Virus record (IMG/VR): IMGVR_UViG_3300036783_000047
Coordinates: 1-27,127 of that record
Reading direction: 5' to 3' (one strand)
From: a virus
Lineage: Duplodnaviria; Caudoviricetes
Length of the DNA: 27,127 nt
Made by a program: the position numbers and the translations under genes. Below are positions 4,723-19,795 of the stretch, piece by piece (positions within the stretch are counted from its first letter, which is position 1; each line of letters opens with the position of its first letter). Below the pieces are notes generated by a model, which worked only from the letters and a program-made list of their open reading frames with translations, made no database searches and was not told where the DNA came from.

Positions 4723-4752
4723 ATTATATATGATGTCCTCGATGGAAGTCAC
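4723..4752 (-). promoter_or_regulatory. Putative sigma70-type promoter for the packaging/structural operon
   Basis: GTGACT-18 bp-TATAAT on the minus strand. Aligns with the two promoters in the control region. Confidence 0.55.
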
Positions 4753-5741: not shown

Positions 5742-5761
5742 TTCTTTCTCCTTCTCTTCTA

Positions 5762-5791
5762 ATTATATAATACGTCCAAAGGGAAAATCAA
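5762..5791 (-). promoter_or_regulatory. Putative leftward promoter
   Basis: TTGATT-18 bp-TATAAT just upstream of the RHH gene RBS. Confidence 0.65.
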
Positions 5792-6233
5792 GGTGTCCTC
5801 TTGGAGCTCTTTTATTTAATAAGGACATCCTTCACCCTGTGTTACAAAGCTTCAAAATCTCATAGTAGTTTAACACGACTAGGCAAAAAAGTTCTAGCAC
5901 TCCTCTCACTCCACACCACCCATCCTTAATATAAAGTAAGGGTGTAGTGTGTATAGTTATGTACTTATTCTCTCCTTTCTCATCTTTGGGACCACCTTAA
6001 CTTTTTTATCTCAGAGGGGGGGTGGGGTGGTGTGCTTTCTTTACTTAACACTCCGCGAGGAACCCACAGTTAAAGCGCTATGTCTTACAAGGAACCACAG
6101 CACTAAAGCACCTCACTATGTTCCACAGGTTTCCCATGAACACTCCAAAGCTATTCCTTCATCTTTCCTTCTAGCTTTCACGCCTCTTTCCTTCCTTTCT
6201 CCAATTATTTTTTAAAAAACCTTTGTCGCCCTC

Positions 6234-6263
6234 TAGCTTTTCCCATTGGAGACCCATTATAAT
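6234..6263 (+). promoter_or_regulatory. Putative rightward promoter
   Basis: TAGCTT-18 bp-TATAAT. Shares TTTTCCCwTTGGA with the leftward promoter at the same offset. Confidence 0.6.
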
Positions 6264-6296
6264 AAAAATATAAGCGAGTGAAGCTTAGGGGGAACA

Positions 6297-6443
6297 ATGA
6301 TCGCCATATCAATGCCACCGGAGCTCGAGATCAAGTTCAGGGAGAAGGTGAAAGCTGAGAACCTATCCATTTCGAAAGCAGGCATAACTGCTATCGAAGC
6401 CTGGATTGATTCTGAGGCAGACCTAGTTACTGAGGACGTTTAA
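6297..6443 (+). CDS. Small RHH-like DNA-binding protein (48 aa; absent from the ORF track)
   Basis: MIAISMPPELEIKFREKVKAENLSISKAGITAIEAWIDSEADLVTEDV. AGGGGG RBS; TAATG coupling to the primase. Confidence 0.75.
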   Translation: MIAISMPPELEIKFREKVKAENLSISKAGITAIEAWIDSEADLVTEDV

Positions 6444-8674
6444 TGCCAGGCGCGGAGGGGTTGGGCCACCTCTCGGCGCTGTCGTTGGGCATCAATGCCC
6501 TGCAGCAGGGACTAGCCGTATTCCCTGTGTCTAAGAAAGATAAGTCGCCTCTAACCCCCAAGGGCCACTCTTGGGAAGAGGTCGCAACCAGTGAAGAAGA
6601 CACACTCCACTCACTGCTCCCACCGCACCTAAATTATCTCATAGCAGCCATACCTGGTCCTGATTACATAGTTATAGACGTAGACGTCAAGCCTCACACA
6701 GACGGATCACCTTCACAAGGTCTAGCATCATTCCAGCGGTTGAGGGGAGATGTCAAGCTACCAAACACTGCACATTACAAGACACGCTCTGGTGGATACC
6801 ACATCTGGTATCAGAAAGACGCAAACCTCACAATCGGTAACGACAACGATGAATGGGATAAACTTTACCCAGACATCGACATCAGAGCCGACAAGGGTTA
6901 CGTAGCTCTACACTACGACATTAACCTTGCAGATGTAGTTCCTGCAAGCAAGTCGCTAGTAGAGTTGTTCGAACGCGTAGGAATGACTGGTGAACGGTCG
7001 CTTCCTGCCAGTGAGTATGACCACACACTCCTTGAGGGTGACATACTTGCCACCGTTAAGCAAATGGAGGCTTGGGGTTGGCAAGCGTACAATCTCATTC
7101 AAGGAACTGAATATTCCAAGGAAGCTTATCAGGTTCGCATGCGCCGAACCGACTCAGAGCACGGACAGAGAGGTGCATGCGTAGGATTCAAGCATCCAGA
7201 GTTCATCGAGATATTCACGCCTAACTGGCTCGTTCCTAAGGGTCACTACGACCTTGCACAGCTTCAAGAGATGCTCAAAGAGGCTGAAGAATGGCCAGTA
7301 GCCAGTGAGGAATGCTACTACGGCATCCTAGGCGAGATAACAGAAGCACTACAGGATTCTATCGAAGCCGATCCGATTCATATCTACGCAACGCTTCTAA
7401 CCTGTGTAGCAGCTTCACTCGAAGGTCCTGTTATTCCAGAGCAGCCAGGCATTGACCTTCATCTCAACATGTTCTCGGTGATGGTCACCTTTACAGCTTC
7501 TGGTAAGGGTGCTTCCTGGTCGACAGTAAAGCCGATACTCAAGATCGCCGATCCTGTGATGTTCGATCCGCAAGACAGCGCGAAGAACCGAGTCGTTGGA
7601 GGCTTTGGTTCCGGCGAAGCGTTCGTTGATCTGGTGTATACTTTGTCACAAGCCGAACTGGGACAAGTGACAAATCAGAGTGGCACAATGTCGATTCGTG
7701 CAGATCGTCGAGTGCTTATCAAGGAGTCCGAGTTCGCGAAGATTACGTCGGCAGCTAATCGAGAGGGGTCGACACTCAGTCAGAACATCCGAGACGCTTT
7801 CGACGGAGAGCCCCTTCAAGCACGAAAGCGGAAAGAGCAGCAAGTCGCTCTGGAGCATTACGTGTCGGTCTTCGGACAGGTCACGATAGGCGAACTGGAA
7901 AGGTGTATCACAGCCAACGACGCCCTCAACGGTTTCGCCAACAGACATTGGTGGGTTCTGGGCCGTCCAGCAGGTCACGTACCGCAAAGAGCTCTGGAAT
8001 ATACGTCTGAAGAACTAGCCAGTCTGTCAGAAGTGGAAAAGCTTCAGATAGATGTAGGTGAAGTCGAAGAGGATCGACGTAGGCAAGAGCGACTCGAGAA
8101 GCTAGCATTTCGTCTTCGTGCTGCACTAGATGGAGCACGGAAGATTGAGAGGATTAAGCTTCTTCCGTCAGTTAAGCCGTTGCACGCAGAGATGGACCTT
8201 GAACTCAGGGACTATAATCCAGGAGGCCTAGCCTCTTCGATACTCGGACGCTCACGTGTCTACCTGTACAAGATGGCGGGTGTACTTGCAGCTCTTGACG
8301 GGTCGCAGTGGATTAATGTCGACCACCTCAATGCAGCGTATGCGCTCCTGAAGCATAATCAAGCGTCGGTCGAATACCTATGGAAGGGTAAGGAAGTGGG
8401 TGTCAAGCTAGGCAAGGGCGCTCTCAAGGATGGAAACACACCAGAAGCCGAAAGAACTCTTGACAAGCTCATTCGCATTCTCCAGACCAATGGTGGTGAG
8501 TTGGAGAACGGTCTTCTCCAGCGAGGAGCTAAGTACTTCAATAGCACTGACAGGAAGTACAAGGCGCAGGCCTTCGACCTGGGCACTAGTAAGGGTCTGA
8601 TCGAGATCGTCGAGCAGGAGACAAAAGCCAAGGGCTTGCCGAAGAAGATCATCCGACTGAGGGGTAACTCATGA
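6443..8674 (+). CDS. Bifunctional primase/polymerase (Prim-Pol) fused to a DUF3987/YfjI-like P-loop helicase domain
   Basis: AVFP...DK.P, IVIDVD, TRSGGYHIWY, IDIRADKGYV. C-terminal half has TASGKG, SGE, IKESE, NGFANR. Confidence 0.85.
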   Translation: MPGAEGLGHLSALSLGINALQQGLAVFPVSKKDKSPLTPKGHSWEEVATSEEDTLHSLLPPHLNYLIAAIPGPDYIVIDVDVKPHTDGSPSQGLASFQRLRGDVKLPNTAHYKTRSGGYHIWYQKDANLTIGNDNDEWDKLYPDIDIRADKGYVALHYDINLADVVPASKSLVELFERVGMTGERSLPASEYDHTLLEGDILATVKQMEAWGWQAYNLIQGTEYSKEAYQVRMRRTDSEHGQRGACVGFKHPEFIEIFTPNWLVPKGHYDLAQLQEMLKEAEEWPVASEECYYGILGEITEALQDSIEADPIHIYATLLTCVAASLEGPVIPEQPGIDLHLNMFSVMVTFTASGKGASWSTVKPILKIADPVMFDPQDSAKNRVVGGFGSGEAFVDLVYTLSQAELGQVTNQSGTMSIRADRRVLIKESEFAKITSAANREGSTLSQNIRDAFDGEPLQARKRKEQQVALEHYVSVFGQVTIGELERCITANDALNGFANRHWWVLGRPAGHVPQRALEYTSEELASLSEVEKLQIDVGEVEEDRRRQERLEKLAFRLRAALDGARKIERIKLLPSVKPLHAEMDLELRDYNPGGLASSILGRSRVYLYKMAGVLAALDGSQWINVDHLNAAYALLKHNQASVEYLWKGKEVGVKLGKGALKDGNTPEAERTLDKLIRILQTNGGELENGLLQRGAKYFNSTDRKYKAQAFDLGTSKGLIEIVEQETKAKGLPKKIIRLRGNS

Positions 8675-8802
8675 AGCTACATCTACTATTCAACGGTCGT
8701 AGCCTCTGCGACACTCCTGGAGAAGTCACTACTACAACCGATCCCAAGAAGGTAACATGCATCGAATGCCTTCACCGTCACCAGATAGGACAAGACCTGT
8801 GA
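8671..8802 (+). CDS. Small putative zinc-finger protein (43 aa; absent from the ORF track)
   Basis: MKLHLLFNGRSLCDTPGEVTTTTDPKKVTCIECLHRHQIGQDL. ATGA and GTGA overlaps on both sides. Confidence 0.7.
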   Translation: MKLHLLFNGRSLCDTPGEVTTTTDPKKVTCIECLHRHQIGQDL

Positions 8803-9583: not shown

Positions 9584-9822
9584 CTCCTAATGAGAAGGCC
9601 AACCAGGCTGCAGCAGAGCTAGTCGAAGCGGTCCGCTCAATGAATCCTCTAGATCCTGCAGGCGAGTATATCATCCCTGTTCGCTGTTCAGTAGATCCAG
9701 ATCAGTCTTACATGTCTTGGGACTGGTTCTGGCGTCCGAAGACTGACAAGGAAGCAGATCTGGATACACATCTAGTCGAGCAAGAACGACGTAGATTGGA
9801 TGATGAAGATGACGGCAGTTAA
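9580..9822 (+). CDS. Hypothetical protein
   Basis: 80-aa ORF with ATGA overlap. Confidence 0.7.
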   Translation: MTPNEKANQAAAELVEAVRSMNPLDPAGEYIIPVRCSVDPDQSYMSWDWFWRPKTDKEADLDTHLVEQERRRLDDEDDGS

Positions 9823-9994
9823 GCATGTCAGACACTCAAGGGTACAAGGTGTCAAGCTGACCTCCATGGGCCGTGTTCTTACGAAGTGTAACGAATACGT
9901 TCTGCAGACTAGGATCGTCTCAGACATTATGCTCATTACCTGCTCAGAGTGCAAGCACCGCGTTCGCTCGGAGTCACGAGCCAATGGGTCTTGA
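9800..9994 (+). CDS. Small putative zinc-finger protein
   Basis: H...C...ITCSEC pattern resembling 8671-8802. Exact start uncertain. Confidence 0.55.
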   Translation: MMKMTAVKHVRHSRVQGVKLTSMGRVLTKCNEYVLQTRIVSDIMLITCSECKHRVRSESRANGS

Positions 9995-10729: not shown

Positions 10730-10770
10730 AGCGGCAGTCGTTGGATCACAGCGGCTGTCGCTTTGTTTTT
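10730..10770 (+). terminator. Intrinsic terminator of the rightward operon
   Basis: AGCGGCAGTCG / CGGCTGTCGCT 11-bp stem with 2 G-U pairs, followed by TTGTTTTT. Confidence 0.75.
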
Positions 10771-10784
10771 ACCAGAAACATCTT

Positions 10785-10943
10785 GTGCTTTTTAGAAGCA
10801 TCAACAGCGATTTGTCATTAGGTCTAACTAAGTCTAAATATGGAATCACAAGGACAAATACCCATCCTTATAAGTTACGACTGAGACGCGAGATATTGAT
10901 TAGACTCAGTTAGACAGTTGGAGCTAAGGCATAAGAAAAGCCC
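10785..10943 (-). ncRNA. Unassigned structured non-coding element, copy A
   Basis: 16-bp stem 10822-10837/10900-10915. Homologous to 19637-19795. Strand inferred from G-U pairs. Confidence 0.55.
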
Positions 10944-10955
10944 TCCGAAGAGGGC
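10933..10955 (-). terminator. Intrinsic terminator of the structural operon
   Basis: Minus strand GCCCTC-TTCG-GAGGGC-TTTTCTT. Confidence 0.85.
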
Positions 10956-10980
10956 GATTCTTACCGAAAGGGTAACTCTT

Positions 10981-11280
10981 CTAGCGCGGCCCAATGATCT
11001 GACGCTGAGACGCTCCGTACACGTAGGATGACGCAGGCTGCGGGTAGGACGACGGCGGAAGACCTGTCGAGTAGAAATCTGCTAGGGCGTTCGCGTCAGC
11101 AAACGCCGTCTGCAGGGCCTGCGCGTCGGCCTGAGCCAGACCCAGTGTCTCGAGTTCTGACTGCTGAACACCCGCGATCCAGGCATAAAAGCCTGCGCAG
11201 TCGTTGAGAGCATCTCTCAAGGCCTGAAGCTTGTTGGCCGCTGAGCTGCTCGTGTCGTTGAGTGTAATTGCGTAGTACAT
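10981..11280 (-). CDS. Hypothetical protein (99 aa), end of tail module
   Basis: Start re-called to ATG 11280 (AGGAG RBS): MYYAITLND... Confidence 0.75.
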   Translation of the reverse strand: MYYAITLNDTSSSAANKLQALRDALNDCAGFYAWIAGVQQSELETLGLAQADAQALQTAFADANALADFYSTGLPPSSYPQPASSYVYGASQRQIIGPR

Positions 11281-11287
11281 GTTTCTC

Positions 11288-11659
11288 CTAAGAAGGAATG
11301 TCGCTCGCGACCGATGTATTTGTCGAATATACGCTGACGATTGAATAGCCAGAGTAGGTAACAGGAGTTGCGACTGCGTCACTGGAGAGCTGAGTCGCTA
11401 GAATTGTATTCCAGTCAGCAGCTGCTAGCCACGACGCGATTGAAGCCGCCCAGGGAGTAGTATCTTCGTGCGTGAACGATTGGCCACTGTCGGTAAGATC
11501 GGCCATAGCGACTGTACCTACATCAGCCATAATGAACATGAAGTAAGGCACAGGATTCGGAAAACCTTGATCAACTCCGTAGTTGGAGCCGACATCCTTC
11601 CCATCGGCATCCTTTAGATAGACGCTGACAGTCCAATAAGGAACTGCTCCTACTTCCAT
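11288..11659 (-). CDS. Hypothetical protein, possible tail-fibre accessory
   Basis: 123 aa with AGGAGGAG RBS; follows the large tail protein. Confidence 0.75.
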   Translation of the reverse strand: MEVGAVPYWTVSVYLKDADGKDVGSNYGVDQGFPNPVPYFMFIMADVGTVAMADLTDSGQSFTHEDTTPWAASIASWLAAADWNTILATQLSSDAVATPVTYSGYSIVSVYSTNTSVASDIPS

Positions 11660-11668
11660 GATCTCCTC

Positions 11669-14600
11669 CTAGTTGACGGGGACTCGTTGAGTACAAGTTA
11701 CGACAGTACCTGAAGGCAGTGATGGAAGCTCCATTTCCACCACACCACCTGTCGTTACTCGGAGTGTGGACGTATTGACAGACGCTGCAACAGTTCCGTT
11801 CCAACCTAGCGGGTACGAACGCCCATTCGATGGAGCCGTAGGTAGAGCATTGGCGAACGCTATCGTCGTCCCTGCAGTTGTCGTAGCTGTAGCAGTCATT
11901 ACAATGTCTACTTCGTAACGACCATCAGTTGTAAGTTGGTACCGTCCTTGGTTTACTGTCCAGTTAGCTGAACCCGTTCCCGATAGCGTACCGAGCGAAT
12001 GCCAAGTGTCGGTAGTGATAAGCGTCGGAGTAGAAGTACTACCACCTGTTGAAGTGACAGTACCAGAGACGTTGACGTTGCCAGTTACATGGAAAGCTCC
12101 GTCAGTACTACCAGACACAGAGCTGCTACCTGACGATGTACCATGGAACCCGATACCGATTGGATAAGAAGTTCCATAGACGTCAGTTCCTGCTACAGCT
12201 GCAATAGAAAGGATCAGAGTACGTTGGACAGCCGTAACGATGATCTTTCCGTTAGCTCCAGCTCCAGCGTTAGCAGTATTTCCACCGACATAGGCGCCCC
12301 CGCCACCCGCTCCAGGAGAAGAGCCCGCAGTACCATTAGTCGTAGTACTAAGCTTTCCCCCTGTACCGCCACTACCTCCACCAGTAGGTGCTATGCCTCC
12401 TGCGCCTCCTGCGCCTGTCGTACTGTTAGGATCGGCATCGGCACCACTTGTTCCAGCAGCTGAAGGTCCTGCAGAAGATCCTCCACCTCCACCTCCACCA
12501 CCAAGTGTTGTCGAGATCGTGTAGCTGATATTGACTAGACCAGTACCTCCTGCGCCGCCAGCCTTTCCAGCTGCTGTTGTAGACCCACCGCCACCCCCGC
12601 CACCCCCGCCAAAGTTGCCTCCAGAACCACCTGCAGTAGGTGCACCTGTTCCCCAGCCTCCTCCGCCACCTGAACCGCCTCCAGAAGGTGCTGTCGTTCC
12701 TGCACCAGGAGTAGCACCAGTGCTATTCTTTCCAGCAAAGCCGTTAGCACTTTGTCCTGCTCCAGTGCCGCCACCAGAGCCTCCGGTGGACGAGATCGAG
12801 CCACCATGACCACCTGTAAATAGAGTGTCACCTGTAGCACCCGCACCTCCCGTCCCACCTGCGTTAGTTGTTGCTGCATTGCCACCAAAAGCTGATGCAA
12901 CCGTAGTACCACTGTGAATAACGGCCGACGAGCCACCGTTACCACCTAGATGGCCTGCAGATCCGGCGGTGCCAGGAGCTCCGACGTTTATCTGGATAAC
13001 GTCGCCAGGCGCGACGGTGACACTCGACGTCTTTATAGCATAACCACCACCGCCTCCAGCAGCACCACCACCTGTACTAGAAGTAGAACCTCCTGCACCA
13101 CCACCACCTGCTCCCCAAGTCTCTATCTGAGAGAGCGAAGTGACGCCATTTGGAACTGTCCAGAAAGTAGTGCCCGGAGTAGTATAAGAATCTGTCTGAG
13201 GCGTTCCGGAGCCGCCAGAGGTGACAGCAAATTTACCAGCTGCACCGCCATCAAAATGGATTGTGTTCGTACTACCTGTACCGCCTGTGTCTGGAGGAAA
13301 TACTCCATAACCTGTACCGTCTGCACCTCCTTTACTGTCTCCACCACCATGTGCACGCACAGTTACAGAGTCACCTGTAAAGAGACTTCTGCTACCTCCG
13401 AAGTTTGGAGAATGTCCAACATGTACGCCTACAACATAGGCGTACGAATTACCAACGGTGACAGCAAGTTGTGGCTCCTCAGAATATTCGGCACCTCCAC
13501 CAGCACTAGTGAAGTTCAACCCAGGCGCAGGCGCATCATCTGCGCCCAGTCCGTCACCGCCCGCGCCCCATGCCTGGACACGTGCGTAGAGAGTACCAGA
13601 AGGGCAAGTCCAGTTACCTGAACCGCTAGTGTACGTCGTGACAGTGTTTACCTGCTTGTAGACTAGGAGACGCCCGCCGTTCTGGTCATCGAATATGATA
13701 TCCGACTCAGTGATAGACGCACCAATGATGGTAGCCGCAATAAGTGTGGCGACACCAATGCTAACTGCAGAAATCGAAGCTGCAGTAATGGATCCGCCGT
13801 TGATCGTGGCAGCATTGATTTCCGTCGAGTCTACAATGCCTGAGACAACTAGTCCAGCAGCTAGAAGCGAGGCATCGATTGTGCCTGCGACGATTAGCGA
13901 ACTGTCGATCGTACCAGCATTGATGACAGAACCAGCATCCCAAGTAACAGGGTTCCAGTTAGTTCCATCGAACTGGTTGATCTGATAGCCTGACGAAGCA
14001 TCGATCCAGATATCACCAGTGTTAGGCGAACCAGGAGCTGTCGTGGCTATGGTAGTCGATATCCCACCAATTGCACGAGCTGTAACAGAGCCATCAAGTA
14101 GAGTGACCGAGATGGACCCACCAGCTATAACGTCAGTACCTGTCCAGGTAATCGCATCCCAGCTAGATCCATTCCAACGGTTCATCTGGTTACCGTTAGC
14201 GGAGTCGATCCAGATGTCTCCGACGTTCGGACTGGCTGGAGCCGAAGCTGCAATGGTAGTAGTTACTCCACCCAACGACCGCGCTGTTATACCAGTACTG
14301 AGAGCCGAGACTCCCACCGAACCGACGGCAAGCTGCGAGCCAGAAACCGATCCAGCTGCAGACTGTGAAACAGCCGATCCGACGGTCTGTCCTGCAACAG
14401 TAGTGCCAGGGTTGAAGGCAGATTCCCAAGGGTCTTCAGGAATAGCATTGAACGTGATCTGCCACTTGTATGCATTGAAGACTTCCGTCCAGCCCCAAGC
14501 TAGCTGCTTGACAGTAGCTTCGCCGCCATAAGCTGGCAGGTTTGAGATCGTGAAGTAGTCGCCCTGCCGAAGCGATGGTACCGAGTCGAAGAGTGATTCT

Positions 14601-16291
14601 GTTTCGACACGAGAGAGATCGATAGTAACACTCGGGTATCGGAGTTTGTCAACGACTCCACTGAAGAGTATCTGCTCGGCGAGTGCAGTCACATCCGAAT
14701 CTGTGCTGCATGAAACGTTTTGTGTGTAAGCGTAGCCAGAGCCTACACCGCTAGGCGGATCGAGAAGCGAGCGATCACCTGTAGCCAGGTAAGCCCGAAC
14801 AGAGTAACCGTCCCAGTTAGTGAGTGTGACATCGTTACGAATAAGCGAGTCATCAAACACCGGAGAGAACGTCGGACTGATCTGTGCTGCCGTATAGTTA
14901 ATCGTCAGTGACGAAGTCTGATTCTGGAGAGAGAACCTAGACCTGAAGCCTAGACCGAACTGGTCACGAGACTCGTAGAGGAAGCCGCCGTCACTCTTCT
15001 CGATTACCGTAAGGACATTAGCGAGAGTATCGTCAGTCTGTGGTCCGAGCTCTACACCAACTCCTGAACCAATTACTTCTGCCCCGATACCTTCCTCGCC
15101 GCAGAGTCGTTGGAATCGAGTTATCGAACCTTCTCCAACGTAGCCACCAAGTGAAAGGGCTGCCGTGACATATGCAGAGGAAGCAGCTGCGGAGAAGGCA
15201 GCTAGGTGGCCGATGGCTACATCGTGTAGAGCATTGCTCGTCGCGGAAGGACTGAACGTCGGTGCGAAGGTTGCCTTCGTCATTGCTGCAGCTGTGCCGG
15301 CGATAGTCCCTGTCTTGGACTGCCAGATAGCTGTATCGCCCTGCCTGATGAGGTCGATAGTCCAAGCGACGTTCGAACCAGACTGCGCTAGACTAACTCG
15401 GACGAGAACAGGTACGCCTGTAACAGCTGTCGTGATTACCTGGTTGGAGATAATCACTGCCTTGGACGAGTTGTACATGTTCGCGTACAGCTGTCCTGTC
15501 GTCCCGTTAAGACTAATGACGACGTAAGCTATCGTCCCGCCTGATTGGATCGAAACGATGTCACGGTTCGCACCCTGTGCACCTGAATCACCTCCTGCCG
15601 GCACAGAGCATGCGAACCAGCATTCAGGCTGCGTGGAGGTGAAGGTAGGAAATGTACAGATGATCTCTGAGCCGTTGAGCGTTGCTAGAGCATCGGCACC
15701 CTTGAAGTCCGAGTTAGCAGCCAGAGAAATGTCGAACCCTGTAGGCCACGTACCTGCCGAGATCGTAGTCGGATACCCAGCAAGGTTGGTGGAACCAGTA
15801 CCATCCTCCATTGTCCAGTAAGCCACCAGCGGTATAGCGGACAGTGACTGGATGTACCGACGAATGGGTGAACCGAGCATCTTGGTTGACTGCGAAAGCC
15901 TACGCCAAATTCCTGCAGCTACGATCGGGACGTAGATGTCATTACCGCTTGTGTCCCACGTGGGAGGCCACTCGCTTACCTCGCCCCAGAATCGATATCC
16001 TGAGTAGGCTGTTGAGTTAGCGGAGGTGTCATTGATGGAGACACGGATTCGAGTATTCTCGGTAACGTACGGGTAGTAAGCACCGCTTGAGTTGAGAGGC
16101 GTGAATCGGCCATCGCGGTTGTTCAGGGTAAGCGTCAAGCCCATAGGAGCCATGGCCGACTGCTCGTTAGTACGACCTACTGGTGTAACGGAAATGTCTG
16201 AGCGCTGCTGCACGTAGGTGGAGATATCTGTCCACGTACCATTGAGGAGCAGCTCGACCTTAATGCCTAGTGGAGAAGCAGGAAACACCAT
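11669..16291 (-). CDS. Large multidomain minor tail / receptor-binding protein (1540 aa)
   Basis: Follows TMP. N-terminal WTDIS..V, GR..E, LNNRDGRFTP, AYW.MED motifs; GDIWID repeats; Gly-rich domains; beta-rich C-terminus. Confidence 0.85.
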   Translation of the reverse strand: MVFPASPLGIKVELLLNGTWTDISTYVQQRSDISVTPVGRTNEQSAMAPMGLTLTLNNRDGRFTPLNSSGAYYPYVTENTRIRVSINDTSANSTAYSGYRFWGEVSEWPPTWDTSGNDIYVPIVAAGIWRRLSQSTKMLGSPIRRYIQSLSAIPLVAYWTMEDGTGSTNLAGYPTTISAGTWPTGFDISLAANSDFKGADALATLNGSEIICTFPTFTSTQPECWFACSVPAGGDSGAQGANRDIVSIQSGGTIAYVVISLNGTTGQLYANMYNSSKAVIISNQVITTAVTGVPVLVRVSLAQSGSNVAWTIDLIRQGDTAIWQSKTGTIAGTAAAMTKATFAPTFSPSATSNALHDVAIGHLAAFSAAASSAYVTAALSLGGYVGEGSITRFQRLCGEEGIGAEVIGSGVGVELGPQTDDTLANVLTVIEKSDGGFLYESRDQFGLGFRSRFSLQNQTSSLTINYTAAQISPTFSPVFDDSLIRNDVTLTNWDGYSVRAYLATGDRSLLDPPSGVGSGYAYTQNVSCSTDSDVTALAEQILFSGVVDKLRYPSVTIDLSRVETESLFDSVPSLRQGDYFTISNLPAYGGEATVKQLAWGWTEVFNAYKWQITFNAIPEDPWESAFNPGTTVAGQTVGSAVSQSAAGSVSGSQLAVGSVGVSALSTGITARSLGGVTTTIAASAPASPNVGDIWIDSANGNQMNRWNGSSWDAITWTGTDVIAGGSISVTLLDGSVTARAIGGISTTIATTAPGSPNTGDIWIDASSGYQINQFDGTNWNPVTWDAGSVINAGTIDSSLIVAGTIDASLLAAGLVVSGIVDSTEINAATINGGSITAASISAVSIGVATLIAATIIGASITESDIIFDDQNGGRLLVYKQVNTVTTYTSGSGNWTCPSGTLYARVQAWGAGGDGLGADDAPAPGLNFTSAGGGAEYSEEPQLAVTVGNSYAYVVGVHVGHSPNFGGSRSLFTGDSVTVRAHGGGDSKGGADGTGYGVFPPDTGGTGSTNTIHFDGGAAGKFAVTSGGSGTPQTDSYTTPGTTFWTVPNGVTSLSQIETWGAGGGGAGGSTSSTGGGAAGGGGGYAIKTSSVTVAPGDVIQINVGAPGTAGSAGHLGGNGGSSAVIHSGTTVASAFGGNAATTNAGGTGGAGATGDTLFTGGHGGSISSTGGSGGGTGAGQSANGFAGKNSTGATPGAGTTAPSGGGSGGGGGWGTGAPTAGGSGGNFGGGGGGGGGSTTAAGKAGGAGGTGLVNISYTISTTLGGGGGGGGSSAGPSAAGTSGADADPNSTTGAGGAGGIAPTGGGSGGTGGKLSTTTNGTAGSSPGAGGGGAYVGGNTANAGAGANGKIIVTAVQRTLILSIAAVAGTDVYGTSYPIGIGFHGTSSGSSSVSGSTDGAFHVTGNVNVSGTVTSTGGSTSTPTLITTDTWHSLGTLSGTGSANWTVNQGRYQLTTDGRYEVDIVMTATATTTAGTTIAFANALPTAPSNGRSYPLGWNGTVAASVNTSTLRVTTGGVVEMELPSLPSGTVVTCTQRVPVN

Positions 16292-16300
16292 CAGACACTC

Positions 16301-18934
16301 CTAGTTCTTCCCAAGAGCTGTTTGCACGTTGCCGCCACCAATAGTCCTGATGGTGTACCGGATGTCTTCGAGCTGGTCTTGAGTAAGGCCTGCCTTGCGG
16401 AAGGACTCTCCCAGCTCTAGTGTGATGCGCAGCTCCTGCTTTCCGCTGCCTAGAGCAGAGTTCGTCTGAGAGTTGTTGAAGACCTGAGAGCCTACTGGCA
16501 GCTTGACAAGCTCGCGACCACGTTCACCAACGACTGCCCACGGAGAAGTTGTAGGCCCGCCCTTTTGGTACCAGCCAGCAGACACTTCGTGCGCCCACGC
16601 ATTGACTGGGTTGCCATAACGTTGCCTGATGTAGTTCACCATGGCGACAGCTTGGCCTGCTGCCGTAGTCGAATTACCTCCGTATTGTGCATACTCGGAA
16701 GGCCCATTGATAAACTGGGCCATTCCATAAGCGCCCGACGAAGGGTTCTGAGCATGAATGTTGTAGCCCGCTTCGCGCATTTCCACGTTATTGAGAGCTG
16801 ACCACTGACCGCCCGTCCATCCTGCCTTAGCGGCAGCGGACTTCAGGGCTGCGAAGGCCGAGCTATTCGAAACTCCTGCACCACTAATTGCTGAGGCAGC
16901 AGCCGCCGCGATCTTCCCAGCAGTCGAGTGGACAACTGCCTTAGCCTTGTTCATACCGATGCCGAGACCGTTCATGATGTGCACACCGGCGTCGATTGCC
17001 CACTGCGGTGGCGAATGGATCCCTAGGGCGTTGAGTATGTCCTTGGCTAGCGACTTGAAGAAGCCTGTTACAGCGTTCCACACGCTCCTGAATCCTTGGA
17101 GCATGCCATTCATAACGCCCTTAGCCCATCCTACCATCCACGAGCCTACACCATGCAGAGTACCTTCGATGCCTCCCGGGACACCTCGGAACCATCCGAT
17201 GATCGAGTTCCAGATACTCCTGGTAGTGTTGAAGACACTGTTCCAAGCATTTCGGAAGCCATTTTCCTCGGTGCTCCAGAAGCTCGAGGCTATAGAGTGT
17301 ATGCCGTTCCAGACACCGTGCAGGAAGTTAGAAACCGTATTCCAGACGCTCCTTGCCGTACTGTAGACACTGTTCCAGGTGTTCTTGAATCCTGCTACCT
17401 GCTGAGCGCCGAACGCGTTAGCGGCACTCTCGATGTCGTGCCACAGACCCTTCAGGAAGTTGAAGATGGTATTCCAGATCAGCTTGATGAAGGCCCAGAT
17501 CTGTTCATGATACTTGTAGATCAGACCAGCAGTTCCGAAGATCAGTGGCCACCATTGCTTGGCGAAGTTCAAGAACCCATCCCACAAGTTCTTGAGCCAG
17601 TCAACAATTGTAGTCCACGTCGTCTTGATGAAGTTCCAGATCTGCGTGTGGTACTTGATGATGATTGCCGCAAGAACAACGACTGCTAGCCCAATCGCCA
17701 CGAATGGGTTCATATCCATCACGAGGTTCAGTGCAGCTTGTGCTATGGCAACTGTCTTAGCCACGATTGCATATGCTGCTAGAGCACCCATGACAGCTGC
17801 AATAGCCTTAGCCAGATCCTTAACAGTGCCCTGGTTGTGTGAAATCCACCCCAAAACTGACTGCAGCATCGGCATGAGCTTGTTACCAAACTCGATAGCC
17901 AGAGAACCTGCTTGAGCTTCGACTTCAGACAGCTGCTGCTTGAAGGACTTCTGAACCTCTGAGAAGCCTGCGACGTTGCCTTGAGCATCCTTAGAGGCTC
18001 CTGAGATCCCTGCTATAGCTGCCTGGGTTCCCTTAGCATTCTCGCCTGTAGTAGCCAGCGCTACCTGGAGTCCGTTAGCCGACCCCATCAGCTTGGCCAG
18101 AGCCTGCGGTACAGTCATGCCTAGTGAGGGAGCCATCTTGTCTGCTACACCACGCAGCCACTCCAGTGTACCGCCCAGGCCCTGCGTGGCTAGATGCTGG
18201 TGAACCTGATCGGCACTGATACCAAATGCACCGAAGTTCTTGATCATCACATTGGTAGGAGCTTCCAGGTGACGCATGGCATTAGCCATCTGCTGTGAGG
18301 CCTCTTGTGCCGAGATACCATGTGAGGTCATCTCTGCTTCGACGCCTGCTACGTCAGACAGCTTGAGGTGCATAGCGGAAGCCAGAGGAAGAATGACCGA
18401 CATCGACTGCGAGAAGTCCTGGAAGTTAGTCTTGCCGAAGCTAACTGCCTTCACCAGCTTCGACGTTACATCAGCTGCGTCGCTAGCCTTCATGTGATAG
18501 TCGACCAGTACGTCGGTAACGGCGTTAGCAACTGTTCCCAGATCAGCGTTCTCATCCTTAGCACCTTGAGCAGCAGCCTTCAGCACGACTAGACCTGCAG
18601 CTCCATGGTATCCTGCAGACTCGACCGTGTACATGCCCTTAGCAAGACTGTCAGCAGACATACCGACCTGGCCAGCCATGTCAAGCATTCCCTGGCGAAC
18701 CATACCAATGTTCTTGTTCGACTCATTGGCGCTCGTGACGAGCCGTGTCGTTGATGACTGGAAGTCCGTTGCCATCTTCACGGAGGCTACTGCAATCGCC
18801 GCCAGAGCTAGGCCTCCGACGGCGCCGACCTTGGTGAGCTTGGAACTAAGCCCTTCACCAGAAGCTGCTGCCTCAGTCATCGCCGCTTTGCTCTGGTTGG
18901 AAGCCTTGATAACTACTTCGACGATGTTAGGCAT
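16301..18934 (-). CDS. Tape measure protein with C-terminal lytic transglycosylase (SLT-like) domain
   Basis: Ala-rich TP901-like core, NP motif, periodic W/F repeats; REAGYN..AQNPSSGAYG.AQF...YI..RYG; VGERGRELV. Confidence 0.93.
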   Translation of the reverse strand: MPNIVEVVIKASNQSKAAMTEAAASGEGLSSKLTKVGAVGGLALAAIAVASVKMATDFQSSTTRLVTSANESNKNIGMVRQGMLDMAGQVGMSADSLAKGMYTVESAGYHGAAGLVVLKAAAQGAKDENADLGTVANAVTDVLVDYHMKASDAADVTSKLVKAVSFGKTNFQDFSQSMSVILPLASAMHLKLSDVAGVEAEMTSHGISAQEASQQMANAMRHLEAPTNVMIKNFGAFGISADQVHQHLATQGLGGTLEWLRGVADKMAPSLGMTVPQALAKLMGSANGLQVALATTGENAKGTQAAIAGISGASKDAQGNVAGFSEVQKSFKQQLSEVEAQAGSLAIEFGNKLMPMLQSVLGWISHNQGTVKDLAKAIAAVMGALAAYAIVAKTVAIAQAALNLVMDMNPFVAIGLAVVVLAAIIIKYHTQIWNFIKTTWTTIVDWLKNLWDGFLNFAKQWWPLIFGTAGLIYKYHEQIWAFIKLIWNTIFNFLKGLWHDIESAANAFGAQQVAGFKNTWNSVYSTARSVWNTVSNFLHGVWNGIHSIASSFWSTEENGFRNAWNSVFNTTRSIWNSIIGWFRGVPGGIEGTLHGVGSWMVGWAKGVMNGMLQGFRSVWNAVTGFFKSLAKDILNALGIHSPPQWAIDAGVHIMNGLGIGMNKAKAVVHSTAGKIAAAAASAISGAGVSNSSAFAALKSAAAKAGWTGGQWSALNNVEMREAGYNIHAQNPSSGAYGMAQFINGPSEYAQYGGNSTTAAGQAVAMVNYIRQRYGNPVNAWAHEVSAGWYQKGGPTTSPWAVVGERGRELVKLPVGSQVFNNSQTNSALGSGKQELRITLELGESFRKAGLTQDQLEDIRYTIRTIGGGNVQTALGKN

Positions 18935-19163
18935 AGTCCTCTGGCACCTCCGATTCTTCCTCTTGCTCTGGGTTGCCTAGCTTCTGAATCCTCATCAACT
19001 GGAGAAGTCGTACATCTTCTTCTAGGAGCGTCTGGAGTGTATAGCCTCCGAACTTCTCTAGCGCCCCTAGAAGAAGGTTGGCCTCTGCTAGCTCTGCGGG
19101 CTCTGAGACGATGTCTCCATCGGCATCGATACCTCCTGGAACTGCTTGCCAGAGCTCGAGTCT
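18927..19163 (-). CDS. -1 frame extension of the tail assembly chaperone (GT-like product, about 226 aa in total)
   Basis: After G GGA AAA the -1 frame reads RLELWQAVPGGIDADGDIVSEPAELAEANLLLGALEKFGGYTLQTLLEEDVRLLQLMRIQKLG...EDYA* and overlaps the TMP start. Confidence 0.8.
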   Translation of the reverse strand, partial: RLELWQAVPGGIDADGDIVSEPAELAEANLLLGALEKFGGYTLQTLLEEDVRLLQLMRIQKLGNPEQEEESEVPEDYA

Positions 19164-19606
19164 TTTCCCAGGTCTTCACTGACACCGCTCATGGCCTTCT
19201 GCCACTCATTGAAGATCCTGAAGATGAAGTCCGTCTCCTGTGCCAGCACACCTGTGATCGTACACGTGTCATCTGCGTCCTGGTGCGTGCCACACTTCAT
19301 CGTCTCGGTGTTAACCGGATCGCCAGAATGTGAGCACTGTGCGAGAACCGCAGGTACGTCCTGATCGAACTCGTCCTGAAGGTTCCACTCAGTCAGCGCT
19401 GAGGCGAAGATCCCGAACATCCTCTTGGTTAGGACGTTCTGCTTGCTGAGATCGTTCGCTGCAGACGAGGAAAGGTCTACGACCTCGAGGAACTGCGAAA
19501 TCGGAAGGCTGCGCATGTTGACTTCGAGGCCATCCAGCTCCTCGTCATCCGCCCAGCGCAGCTTGTAGATTGTTGCCTTTTTCTTGAACTTGCTACGATT
19601 TCCCAT
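19088..19606 (-). CDS. Tail assembly chaperone (G-like)
   Basis: Between tail tube and TMP; WNL.DE motif; contains the slippery heptamer. Confidence 0.8.
   Translation of the reverse strand: MGNRSKFKKKATIYKLRWADDEELDGLEVNMRSLPISQFLEVVDLSSSAANDLSKQNVLTKRMFGIFASALTEWNLQDEFDQDVPAVLAQCSHSGDPVNTETMKCGTHQDADDTCTITGVLAQETDFIFRIFNEWQKAMSGVSEDLGKDSSSGKQFQEVSMPMETSSQSPQS
19163..19169 (-). promoter_or_regulatory. Programmed -1 ribosomal frameshift site GGGAAAA
   Basis: X XXY YYZ heptamer in the correct phase (CTG GGA AAA) with an open -1 frame downstream. Confidence 0.85.
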
Positions 19607-19636
19607 GATGGCCAGCCGCTTTCCGTGGCAGTCGTT

Positions 19637-19795
19637 GGGCTCTTCTGTTTGCTTTACTCCGATGGTCTAACTAATTCTAACTGATATCTCGCGTCTTAGC
19701 AGATCATTAGAGAAGAGGATTTATCCTCTGTGATTCCCTATTTAGAATTAGTTAGACCATATGACTAAAAGCTTTGTGAAGCACTTTTAAGTGCT
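19637..19795 (+). ncRNA. Unassigned structured non-coding element, copy B
   Basis: Perfect 19-bp inverted repeat 19662-19680/19742-19760, inner hairpin 19714-19729, 3' hairpin around 19780-19795. Homologous to copy A. Confidence 0.55.

Follow-up and report, generated by a model that had tools for sequence, protein, structure and literature searches.

TCTAA-box elements of tailed soil phages: an uncatalogued family of DNA sites with a possible role in gyrase wrapping

What is the function of the two related, inverted noncoding elements in the genome of the tailed phage IMGVR_UViG_3300036783_000047 (Duplodnaviria; Caudoviricetes)? Copy A occupies about 10786–10943 (minus strand) and copy B about 19637–19795 (plus strand) of the 27,127-nt stretch analysed here, which we call the window. 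An earlier note, made from the letters of the window, took the two for members of a structured RNA family. Our data indicate that they belong to a real, uncatalogued family of phage DNA sites. On sequence evidence, the elements are probably double-stranded binding sites for a protein of some kind, and they may be phage-borne sites of the strong-gyrase type, wrapped by the DNA gyrase of the host rather than transcribed as an RNA gene, a reading to which we assign a probability of roughly 0.45.

A family of elements with fixed box spacing

Copies A and B rank as the two best inverted repeats in the window, which contains no third copy. Their homology is beyond doubt, with a local alignment score of 133.5 compared with a maximum of 36.5 in 1000 dinucleotide shuffles. 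The earlier note described the copies accurately in several respects: every sequence stretch that it quoted is present, the blocks that it called invariant occur in both copies, the long stem differs by one G-C/T-A and one A-U/G-U change, and both copies are AT-rich (A+T 61–62%, against 45% for the window). Copy B includes a perfect 19-bp inverted repeat, and the arms of both copies consist of tandem (G/T)TCTAA boxes 10 bp apart. An unbroken 6-kb contig of metagenome run X1, which may be the source sample, spans copy A, and the listed metagenome contigs give no coverage of copy B.

A search pattern built from the blocks shared by A and B had no hits in viral contigs and 10 in metagenomes, none fitting the profile. 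Among the tail-tube relatives, for which 80 of the 170 loci found were examined, one carried a recognisable element (L002, in genome G005), with a related spacer and re-arranged boxes. Patterns made of the boxes found more. The first gave 76 loci, including four G+C-rich family members, and the rest were set aside as chance; the second gave 39 loci, of which the 17 with a G+C content of at least 0.50 were followed and the 22 AT-richer ones left out. The family thus defined consists of elements of roughly 110 bases in the window phage, in one relative and in a family of 45–73 kb phages that share polymerase I, helicase and Que genes. Most statistics exclude G008 (a near copy of G007b), the duplicates G014 and G017, and G009d and G013, in which the centre is unclear. 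When 137 open reading frame (ORF) cluster profiles of the large phages were compared with the window, convincing hits occurred only in terminase, tape measure and tail tip, and therefore we treat the two groups as separate lineages. When the large family alone is used to train a box model, copy A scores 45.5, copy B 33.1 and the next site in the window 12.0. The family matrix from the other lineage also has its top hit at copy A (24.4 at 10873.5).

All copies are intergenic, with 2–5 per complete genome. Six complete or near-complete genomes have 2, 2, 3, 4, 5 and 5 copies, with gaps of 8.7–36 kb. In the three genomes with 4–5 copies the smallest gap exceeds that of random placement (P 0.002–0.012), and in the other three it is no larger than random. 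Copies are found before a helix-turn-helix (HTH) gene, between the DNA polymerase gene and a RuvC-like gene, between the tail tube and chaperone genes, and elsewhere, and these positions are kept across genomes. In all 13 records with a DNA polymerase gene, a copy lies between this gene and the junction of early and late genes. The bracketing of the tail-tip module, which the earlier note emphasised, is therefore incidental, since the copies of relatives, 2–5 in number, also occur elsewhere. Another of its suggestions, a mobile element of the non-autonomous kind, is unlikely because the positions are conserved. Ends of insertion sequences, miniature inverted-repeat transposable elements and repetitive extragenic palindromes (REP/REPIN) were rejected for the same reason, and because none of the 43 exact four-box hits in species genomes, nearly all of which are AT-rich, is in an actinomycete.

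The geometry of the boxes is what defines the family. The TA steps of the TCTAA/TTAGA boxes are located at −38, −28, +28, +39, +50 and +61/62 around a variable, box-free core of about 52 bp (51–54 or 61–63 bp in the loci from the box searches), so that boxes recur every 10–12 bp, with two flanking the core on its short-arm side and four on its long-arm side. Distances are fixed, and the boxes may point either way. To avoid circularity, we also searched with the long arm alone and obtained 23 loci, 7 already known and 16 new (11 distinct). In all 16 new loci a far box was present 56–57 bp away, inverted in 13 and direct in 3; in the whole set, the −28 slot is direct in 4 of 38 copies. That the spacing is kept even where pairing is impossible suggests a geometry of double-stranded DNA. 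In a MAFFT alignment the "invariant" block GTGATTCC of A and B coincides with the +28 box of the family. This box is likely worn in A and B, so that the remaining boxes form the long inverted repeat that was earlier taken for a stem.

RNA fold or double-stranded site

The idea of a structured noncoding RNA family does have evidence in its favour. Whole copies fold with z-scores of about −5 (−4.8 and −3.8 for the two strands of A, −4.9 and −5.3 for those of B), one pair of the long stem is compensatory, the small hairpins differ between A and B yet remain paired, and no Rfam covariance model matches the elements. In the Rfam check that the earlier note had proposed, the window gave a single chance snoRNA match elsewhere and 10 homologous loci gave none. 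The folding, however, exceeds that of shuffles on both strands of both copies, as it would for any long inverted repeat. The predicted inner structures of A and B differ, and the proposed TCGCG/TGTGA pairing appears in none of their four predicted folds. Cores stripped of boxes show no significant RNA folding (z −0.9/+1.7 for A and −1.7/−1.4 for B). Among 25 cores, z is below −2 in 9 as RNA on the better strand and in 4 as DNA, and neither strand is preferred (14 versus 11). RNAalifold returned 0 consensus pairs for 24 aligned copies, and the left arm in A and B pairs with a different box pair than in the rest of the family. The elements are oriented both with and against local transcription, and promoter-like sites are absent on both sides of B and none points into A. 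The lack of a consensus fold, of a strand preference and of a fixed orientation makes the RNA reading weak; direct-arm copies and the fixed helical spacing also oppose it, and we consider it very improbable. What stands of the earlier proposal is a conserved, uncatalogued noncoding element under selection, which has homologues and no relevant Rfam match; selection for one single-stranded RNA fold is not supported.

Complementarity between the two halves of single elements does exceed chance, as the earlier note had claimed, and it is equal on both strands. Spacer halves of one element match at 0.64 compared with 0.50 for cross partners (0 of 2000), and core pairing is −13.2 kcal/mol for own partners compared with −9.1 for cross partners (0 of 5000). 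This excess counts against wrapping by gyrase. Kinship or template switching could cause it, and these are not separable here from selection. It might instead reflect a DNA secondary structure, that is, a cruciform or a single-strand hairpin used in replication priming or recombination and cut, for example, by the phage resolvase encoded beside one copy. The strand-neutral self-complementarity beyond the consensus, a core dyad symmetry of 0.44 versus 0.36 ± 0.01 and the perfect 19-bp repeat in B all agree with such a structure. So does the position of one copy before the RuvC-like gene in the large family, together with a weak endonuclease VII match 0.5 kb from copy A. On the other hand, the direct-arm copies keep their 56–58 bp spacing although they cannot form a stem, z as DNA is below −2 in just 4 of the 25 cores, and A, B and G013 have a pairing axis other than that of the family. 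Template switching from arm to arm could also leave such symmetry as a by-product. We regard a DNA secondary structure as unlikely.

Host gyrase and other candidate binders

The published layout of gyrase on DNA has an empty centre, arms phased at about 11 bp that end near 62 bp, and one dominant arm (PMC6379681, PMC11626157, PMC13284261, PMC10052514, bioRxiv 2025.10.21.683783, PMC12324340). In the matrix of Escherichia coli gyrase, A+T peaks are reported at about 18.5, 30, 39, 50 and 60.5 bp from the centre (Sutormin et al., PMC6379681). The structure of gyrase comprises a 35-bp gate segment, a link of about 9 bp and a 49-bp wrap, and at phage Mu's strong gyrase site (SGS) one gyrase pinwheel is fully wrapped and the other partly (PMC13284261); one arm is reported to suffice in Mu (PMC10052514). 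Since the elements are symmetric sites with an empty centre, phased arms and one dominant arm, gyrase is a candidate binder.

Comparison with the E. coli matrix agrees with this. In the outer long arm, which lay outside the search pattern, the box profile correlates with the published matrix at r = 0.74 at zero shift, and the arm and core signals of the family both peak at zero offset. The inner core, which was part of no search pattern, has a matrix score of 2.26 compared with 0.52 ± 0.25 (0 of 1000 shuffles, 22 copies), and in the new loci 1.69 compared with 0.55 ± 0.35 (2 of 1000, 12 rows). A cleavage rule reported as common to the gyrases of E. coli, Bacillus and M. tuberculosis (−4G/−2A/+6T/+8C, PMC12324340) peaks at the geometric centre of the elements, at 2.21 versus 1.60 ± 0.12 (0 of 2000). 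At least three of its four bases occur in 16 of 42 copies, against 5.1 under the null; within 1 bp of the dyad, B has three of the four and A two. This test uses the same DNA positions as the matrix test and is therefore not independent of it. With a GC-debiased matrix the best score falls within 1 bp of the centre in 14 of the 24 copies whose inner boxes are 53–58 bp apart, and among 26998 positions of the window B ranks 2 (at 19737.5) and A ranks 12. As a control of the matrix code, the Mu site at 17876 and the pSC101 site at 4740 ranked first in their genomes. At the level of the family there is a layout of about 130 bp with arms periodic at 10–11 bp and in phase with the dyad, the short arm reaching just to −38. 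That the large-family proteins matching the window are limited to terminase, tape measure and tail tip was counted as favouring a host factor. Gyrase is also reported to gather downstream of active transcription (PMC6379681), and stacking has been described as loosest at TA steps that have AG/CT on their flanks (PMC3401446).

The closest known systems are the Mu SGS and the gyrase site in par of pSC101, which are likewise intergenic, extend over about 110–130 bp and have flexible steps phased at about 11 bp with one dominant arm. The right-arm TA steps of the Mu site, read from its sequence, lie at about +40, +52 and +60, and the element boxes at +39, +50 and +61. Unlike the elements, however, Mu uses A/T tracts and has no sequence similarity to them, and its one central site serves the synapsis of prophage ends, whereas the present phages have 2–5 spaced copies and no transposase was seen. 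The motif of E. coli gyrase resembles the elements in its non-periodic centre, its phase and arms that end near 63–66 bp (PMC6379681). The Widom 601 nucleosome-positioning sequence is similar in its helically spaced TA steps in a CTAG/TAGA-type context, which act as soft spots for tight wrapping (PMC3401446), and the elements differ from it in a period of about 11, a box-free centre and a bacterial host. The elements likely work like a strong gyrase site without being homologues of the Mu SGS.

Several results weigh against gyrase. With the published background the matrix ranks A at 312 and B at 268 of 26998 positions, and debiasing was our own choice. Only 7 of the 27 copies score better than shuffles of themselves (p < 0.05). 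The best gyrase centres in A and B lie +28 and +26.5 from the midpoint, are mutually non-homologous and differ from the register of the family, where the full-matrix score is negative. Over the whole profile the correlation is only 0.2, the short arm is out of phase beyond −44, and the inner spacing of 55–58 bp is 1–3 bp tighter than in the gyrase matrix. The Mu and pSC101 sites lack the box and score 5.8 and 15.0 on the box model, compared with 33–73 for the elements. E. coli gyrase is reported to select GC-rich motifs (bioRxiv 2025.10.21.683783), and its motif is degenerate, whereas the elements have a fixed hexamer, are AT-rich and score modestly as single copies. The copies are related and come from two lineages only, so that the shuffle counts overstate their independence. 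Copies also resemble each other more within a genome (0.59) than at the same position elsewhere (0.44), and the nearest neighbour is in the own genome for 27 of 35 copies when two contig pairs from one metagenome id are counted as one genome. This would not be predicted for a purely mechanical host site, and such concerted evolution needs gene conversion or a phage partner. Finally, the element is missing from Streptomyces phage Dagobah and from most of the tail-tube relatives, and is therefore not universal.

A rival candidate is another protein that binds double-stranded DNA, such as a host nucleoid protein (Lsr2, mIHF or HU-type), RNA polymerase with an array of upstream activators, or a co-evolving phage protein. 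The sequence specificity of the box goes far beyond the known needs of gyrase, and the concerted evolution of the copies would fit a partner of this kind. TANNNT is the consensus of the promoter −10 element. In 32 of 38 copies the −28 box has this form when read towards the short arm, a direction that faces the chaperone and resolvase genes. In the large family an HTH_17 gene always adjoins one copy, and Lsr2 has been reported as required for mycobacteriophage infection. Yet the window, a complete genome, has no homologue of the HTH protein, and TANNNT is also common at +39 (24 of 38) and +62 (22 of 38) and missing in direct-arm copies. No −35 element is conserved, promoters in the copies on the HTH side would be antisense, and copy A would have no gene to drive. 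The gyrase-like central bases would be left unexplained, and a sample of 401 Actinomycetota genomes showed no enrichment of box arrays (matches in 16, below the number for the reversed control). We rate a different protein as a less likely binder than gyrase.

Highly improbable, in our judgement, are iterons of a replication origin (of the P4 ori/crr or SaPI type) and a site of site-specific recombination (attC-like or an inversion site). The window does encode a primase-polymerase (prim-pol)/helicase, and the ends of the boxes fit the attC consensus RYYYAAC...GTTRRRY within an imperfect long inverted repeat. Relative G005, however, has a separate dense iteron array of other sequence upstream of its terminase genes, which is a likelier origin, and the same box occurs in lineages whose primases do not hit each other. 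No recombinase was found in the window, many copies are mutually direct so that recombination would delete genes, and the listed contigs contain no strand-changing joint. Integron attC was rejected because it needs facing L and R boxes in each arm, obligatorily inverted arms and a nearby integrase; in the elements the arms are direct-repeat boxes and can flip, and both an integrase and a cassette array are absent.

Among cultured phages and plasmids, a BLAST search with the elements gave chance-level matches only, and no cultured close relative of the large phage family was found. Our literature searches, which left most subscription papers outside, including the original dissections of the Mu site, returned nothing on the element, and the phage strong gyrase sites that they found were those of Mu-like transposable phages only.

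Copies A and B in their genomic setting

The window is a whole circular contig, the single contig of G000, with a 99-nt terminal repeat. Its leftward genes encode terminase, portal, protease, capsid, tail tube, tape measure and a 1540-aa tail tip, and its rightward genes the prim-pol/helicase and small proteins. Neither integrase nor lysin was recognised among the proteins of this apparently complete 27-kb tailed phage, and prim-pol led to no viral relatives. Among cultured phages, the nearest capsid protein is found in Streptomyces phage Dagobah (50% identity), and both metagenome runs containing the window are from soil. From these two facts, the host is probably an actinomycete. Neither of the two runs is listed as an RNA data set.

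Copy A is located exactly where early and late genes converge, between two convergent terminator-like hairpins, one closing the rightward early genes (10730–10762, plus strand, with one copy of CAACGACTGC) and the other the leftward tail operon (10940–10955, minus strand). In the family model it extends over 10808–10918 on the minus strand with its centre near 10873/10874, the short arm at the high-coordinate end and the long arm towards lower coordinates. The short arm (10900–10915) has two boxes 10 bp apart in slots −28 and −38, and the long arm (10822–10837) two boxes in slots +38 and +48. Between them are block ATATCTCGCGTCT (10884–10896), which is identical in A and B and has no counterpart in the other lineage, and block GTGATTCC (10842–10849), likely the worn +28 box. 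An alternative gyrase-matrix centre falls at 10896.5, next to ATATCTCGCGTCT. A small 3' palindrome with 5-bp arms (10786–10800, minus strand) is outside the modelled footprint.

Copy B lies between the tail tube gene and a gene that likely encodes the tail assembly chaperone; in the orientation used by the earlier note, it is on the opposite strand to both genes. Its model extent is 19660–19770 on the plus strand, with the centre near 19705/19706. The short arm (19665–19680) has boxes in slots −38 and −28, followed by ATATCTCGCGTCT (19684–19696), GTGATTCC (19730–19737, again likely a worn +28 box) and the long arm (19742–19757) with boxes in slots +38 and +48. On the coding strand, the small 3' palindrome (19780–19795) comes shortly after the stop codon of the tail tube gene. 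The raw GC-skew minimum is near copy B; it is weak and confounded by genes and was not used.

Other features of the window were also noted. The 10-mer CAACGACTGC has 11 exact copies, compared with 0.08 expected and at most one in 60 shuffles. These are located at 226, 3182, 4816, 8884, 10734, 11197, 16528, 17677, 19628, 20440 and 23107, on both strands, within genes, beside both elements and in the region upstream of terminase. Variants occur at the same places in L002 and L091, and the 10-mer is possibly a repressor or stoperator-type site. The AT-rich gap between divergent operons at 5750–6280, with short CACACCACC-type and GGAACC repeats, is a likely origin or packaging region. The small ORF that follows at 6288–6443 (plus strand), directly before the prim-pol/helicase gene, has ParG/Arc-like ribbon-helix-helix look-alikes, suggestive of a plasmid-like replication module. 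Two small ORFs at 8671–8802 and 9800–9994 (plus strand) share an H...C...TCxxC pattern and may be zinc-binding paralogues.

Beyond the window, G001 and G009 of the large family (L168, L222) encode QueC, QueE and GTP cyclohydrolase, suggesting 7-deazaguanine DNA modification, and in G001 QueC and primase appear in one reading frame. Dense AGGCTTCTAGAG repeats in two opposed sets occupy positions 1–250 of L091, upstream of the late genes of G005, and have the look of an iteron origin. In an AT-rich viral contig (L212, G020 1048–2121), TCTAACAGA repeats in opposed sets form three distinct arrays over a span of 1.1 kb. Three bacterial genomes of other groups (L255, L261 and L285, each at 301–390) have phased arrays of TCTAA/TTAGA, separated by GC-rich spacers, which might be chromosomal wrapping sites.

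We infer the host, the binder and the benefit of the elements alike. If host gyrase is the binder, the core would sit across its DNA gate, and the boxes would kink at their TA steps, into the minor groove and against the C-terminal pinwheels of GyrA, with the long arm fully wrapped and the short arm partly. Spaced copies would hold gyrase on the circular phage DNA, where it would remove positive supercoils arising from transcription and replication. More tentatively still, we propose that dedicated gyrase-loading sites, optimised in sequence, are spread through the genomes of unrelated soil phages that are not transposable, with about one site for each supercoiling domain. Concerted evolution would keep the sites of a genome alike, and a lytic phage might in this way capture the gyrase of its host and set the topology of its own DNA.

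The comparison of A and B also indicates that, with just two copies to compare, a protein site that is symmetric can be mistaken for a covarying RNA. If the gyrase reading is true, the TCTAA box would be a natural readout of the preference of an actinobacterial GyrA pinwheel, about 50 natural variants would be available to define the wrapping rules of a gyrase other than that of E. coli, and the elements would provide parts for raising plasmid supercoiling in actinomycetes. Should the binder be another protein, the elements would still be a phage DNA site that is uncatalogued, sharply defined and measurable in its geometry. As gyrase sites, present in multiple, evenly spread copies in two unrelated non-transposable groups, they would show that phages hard-wire the control of their DNA topology.

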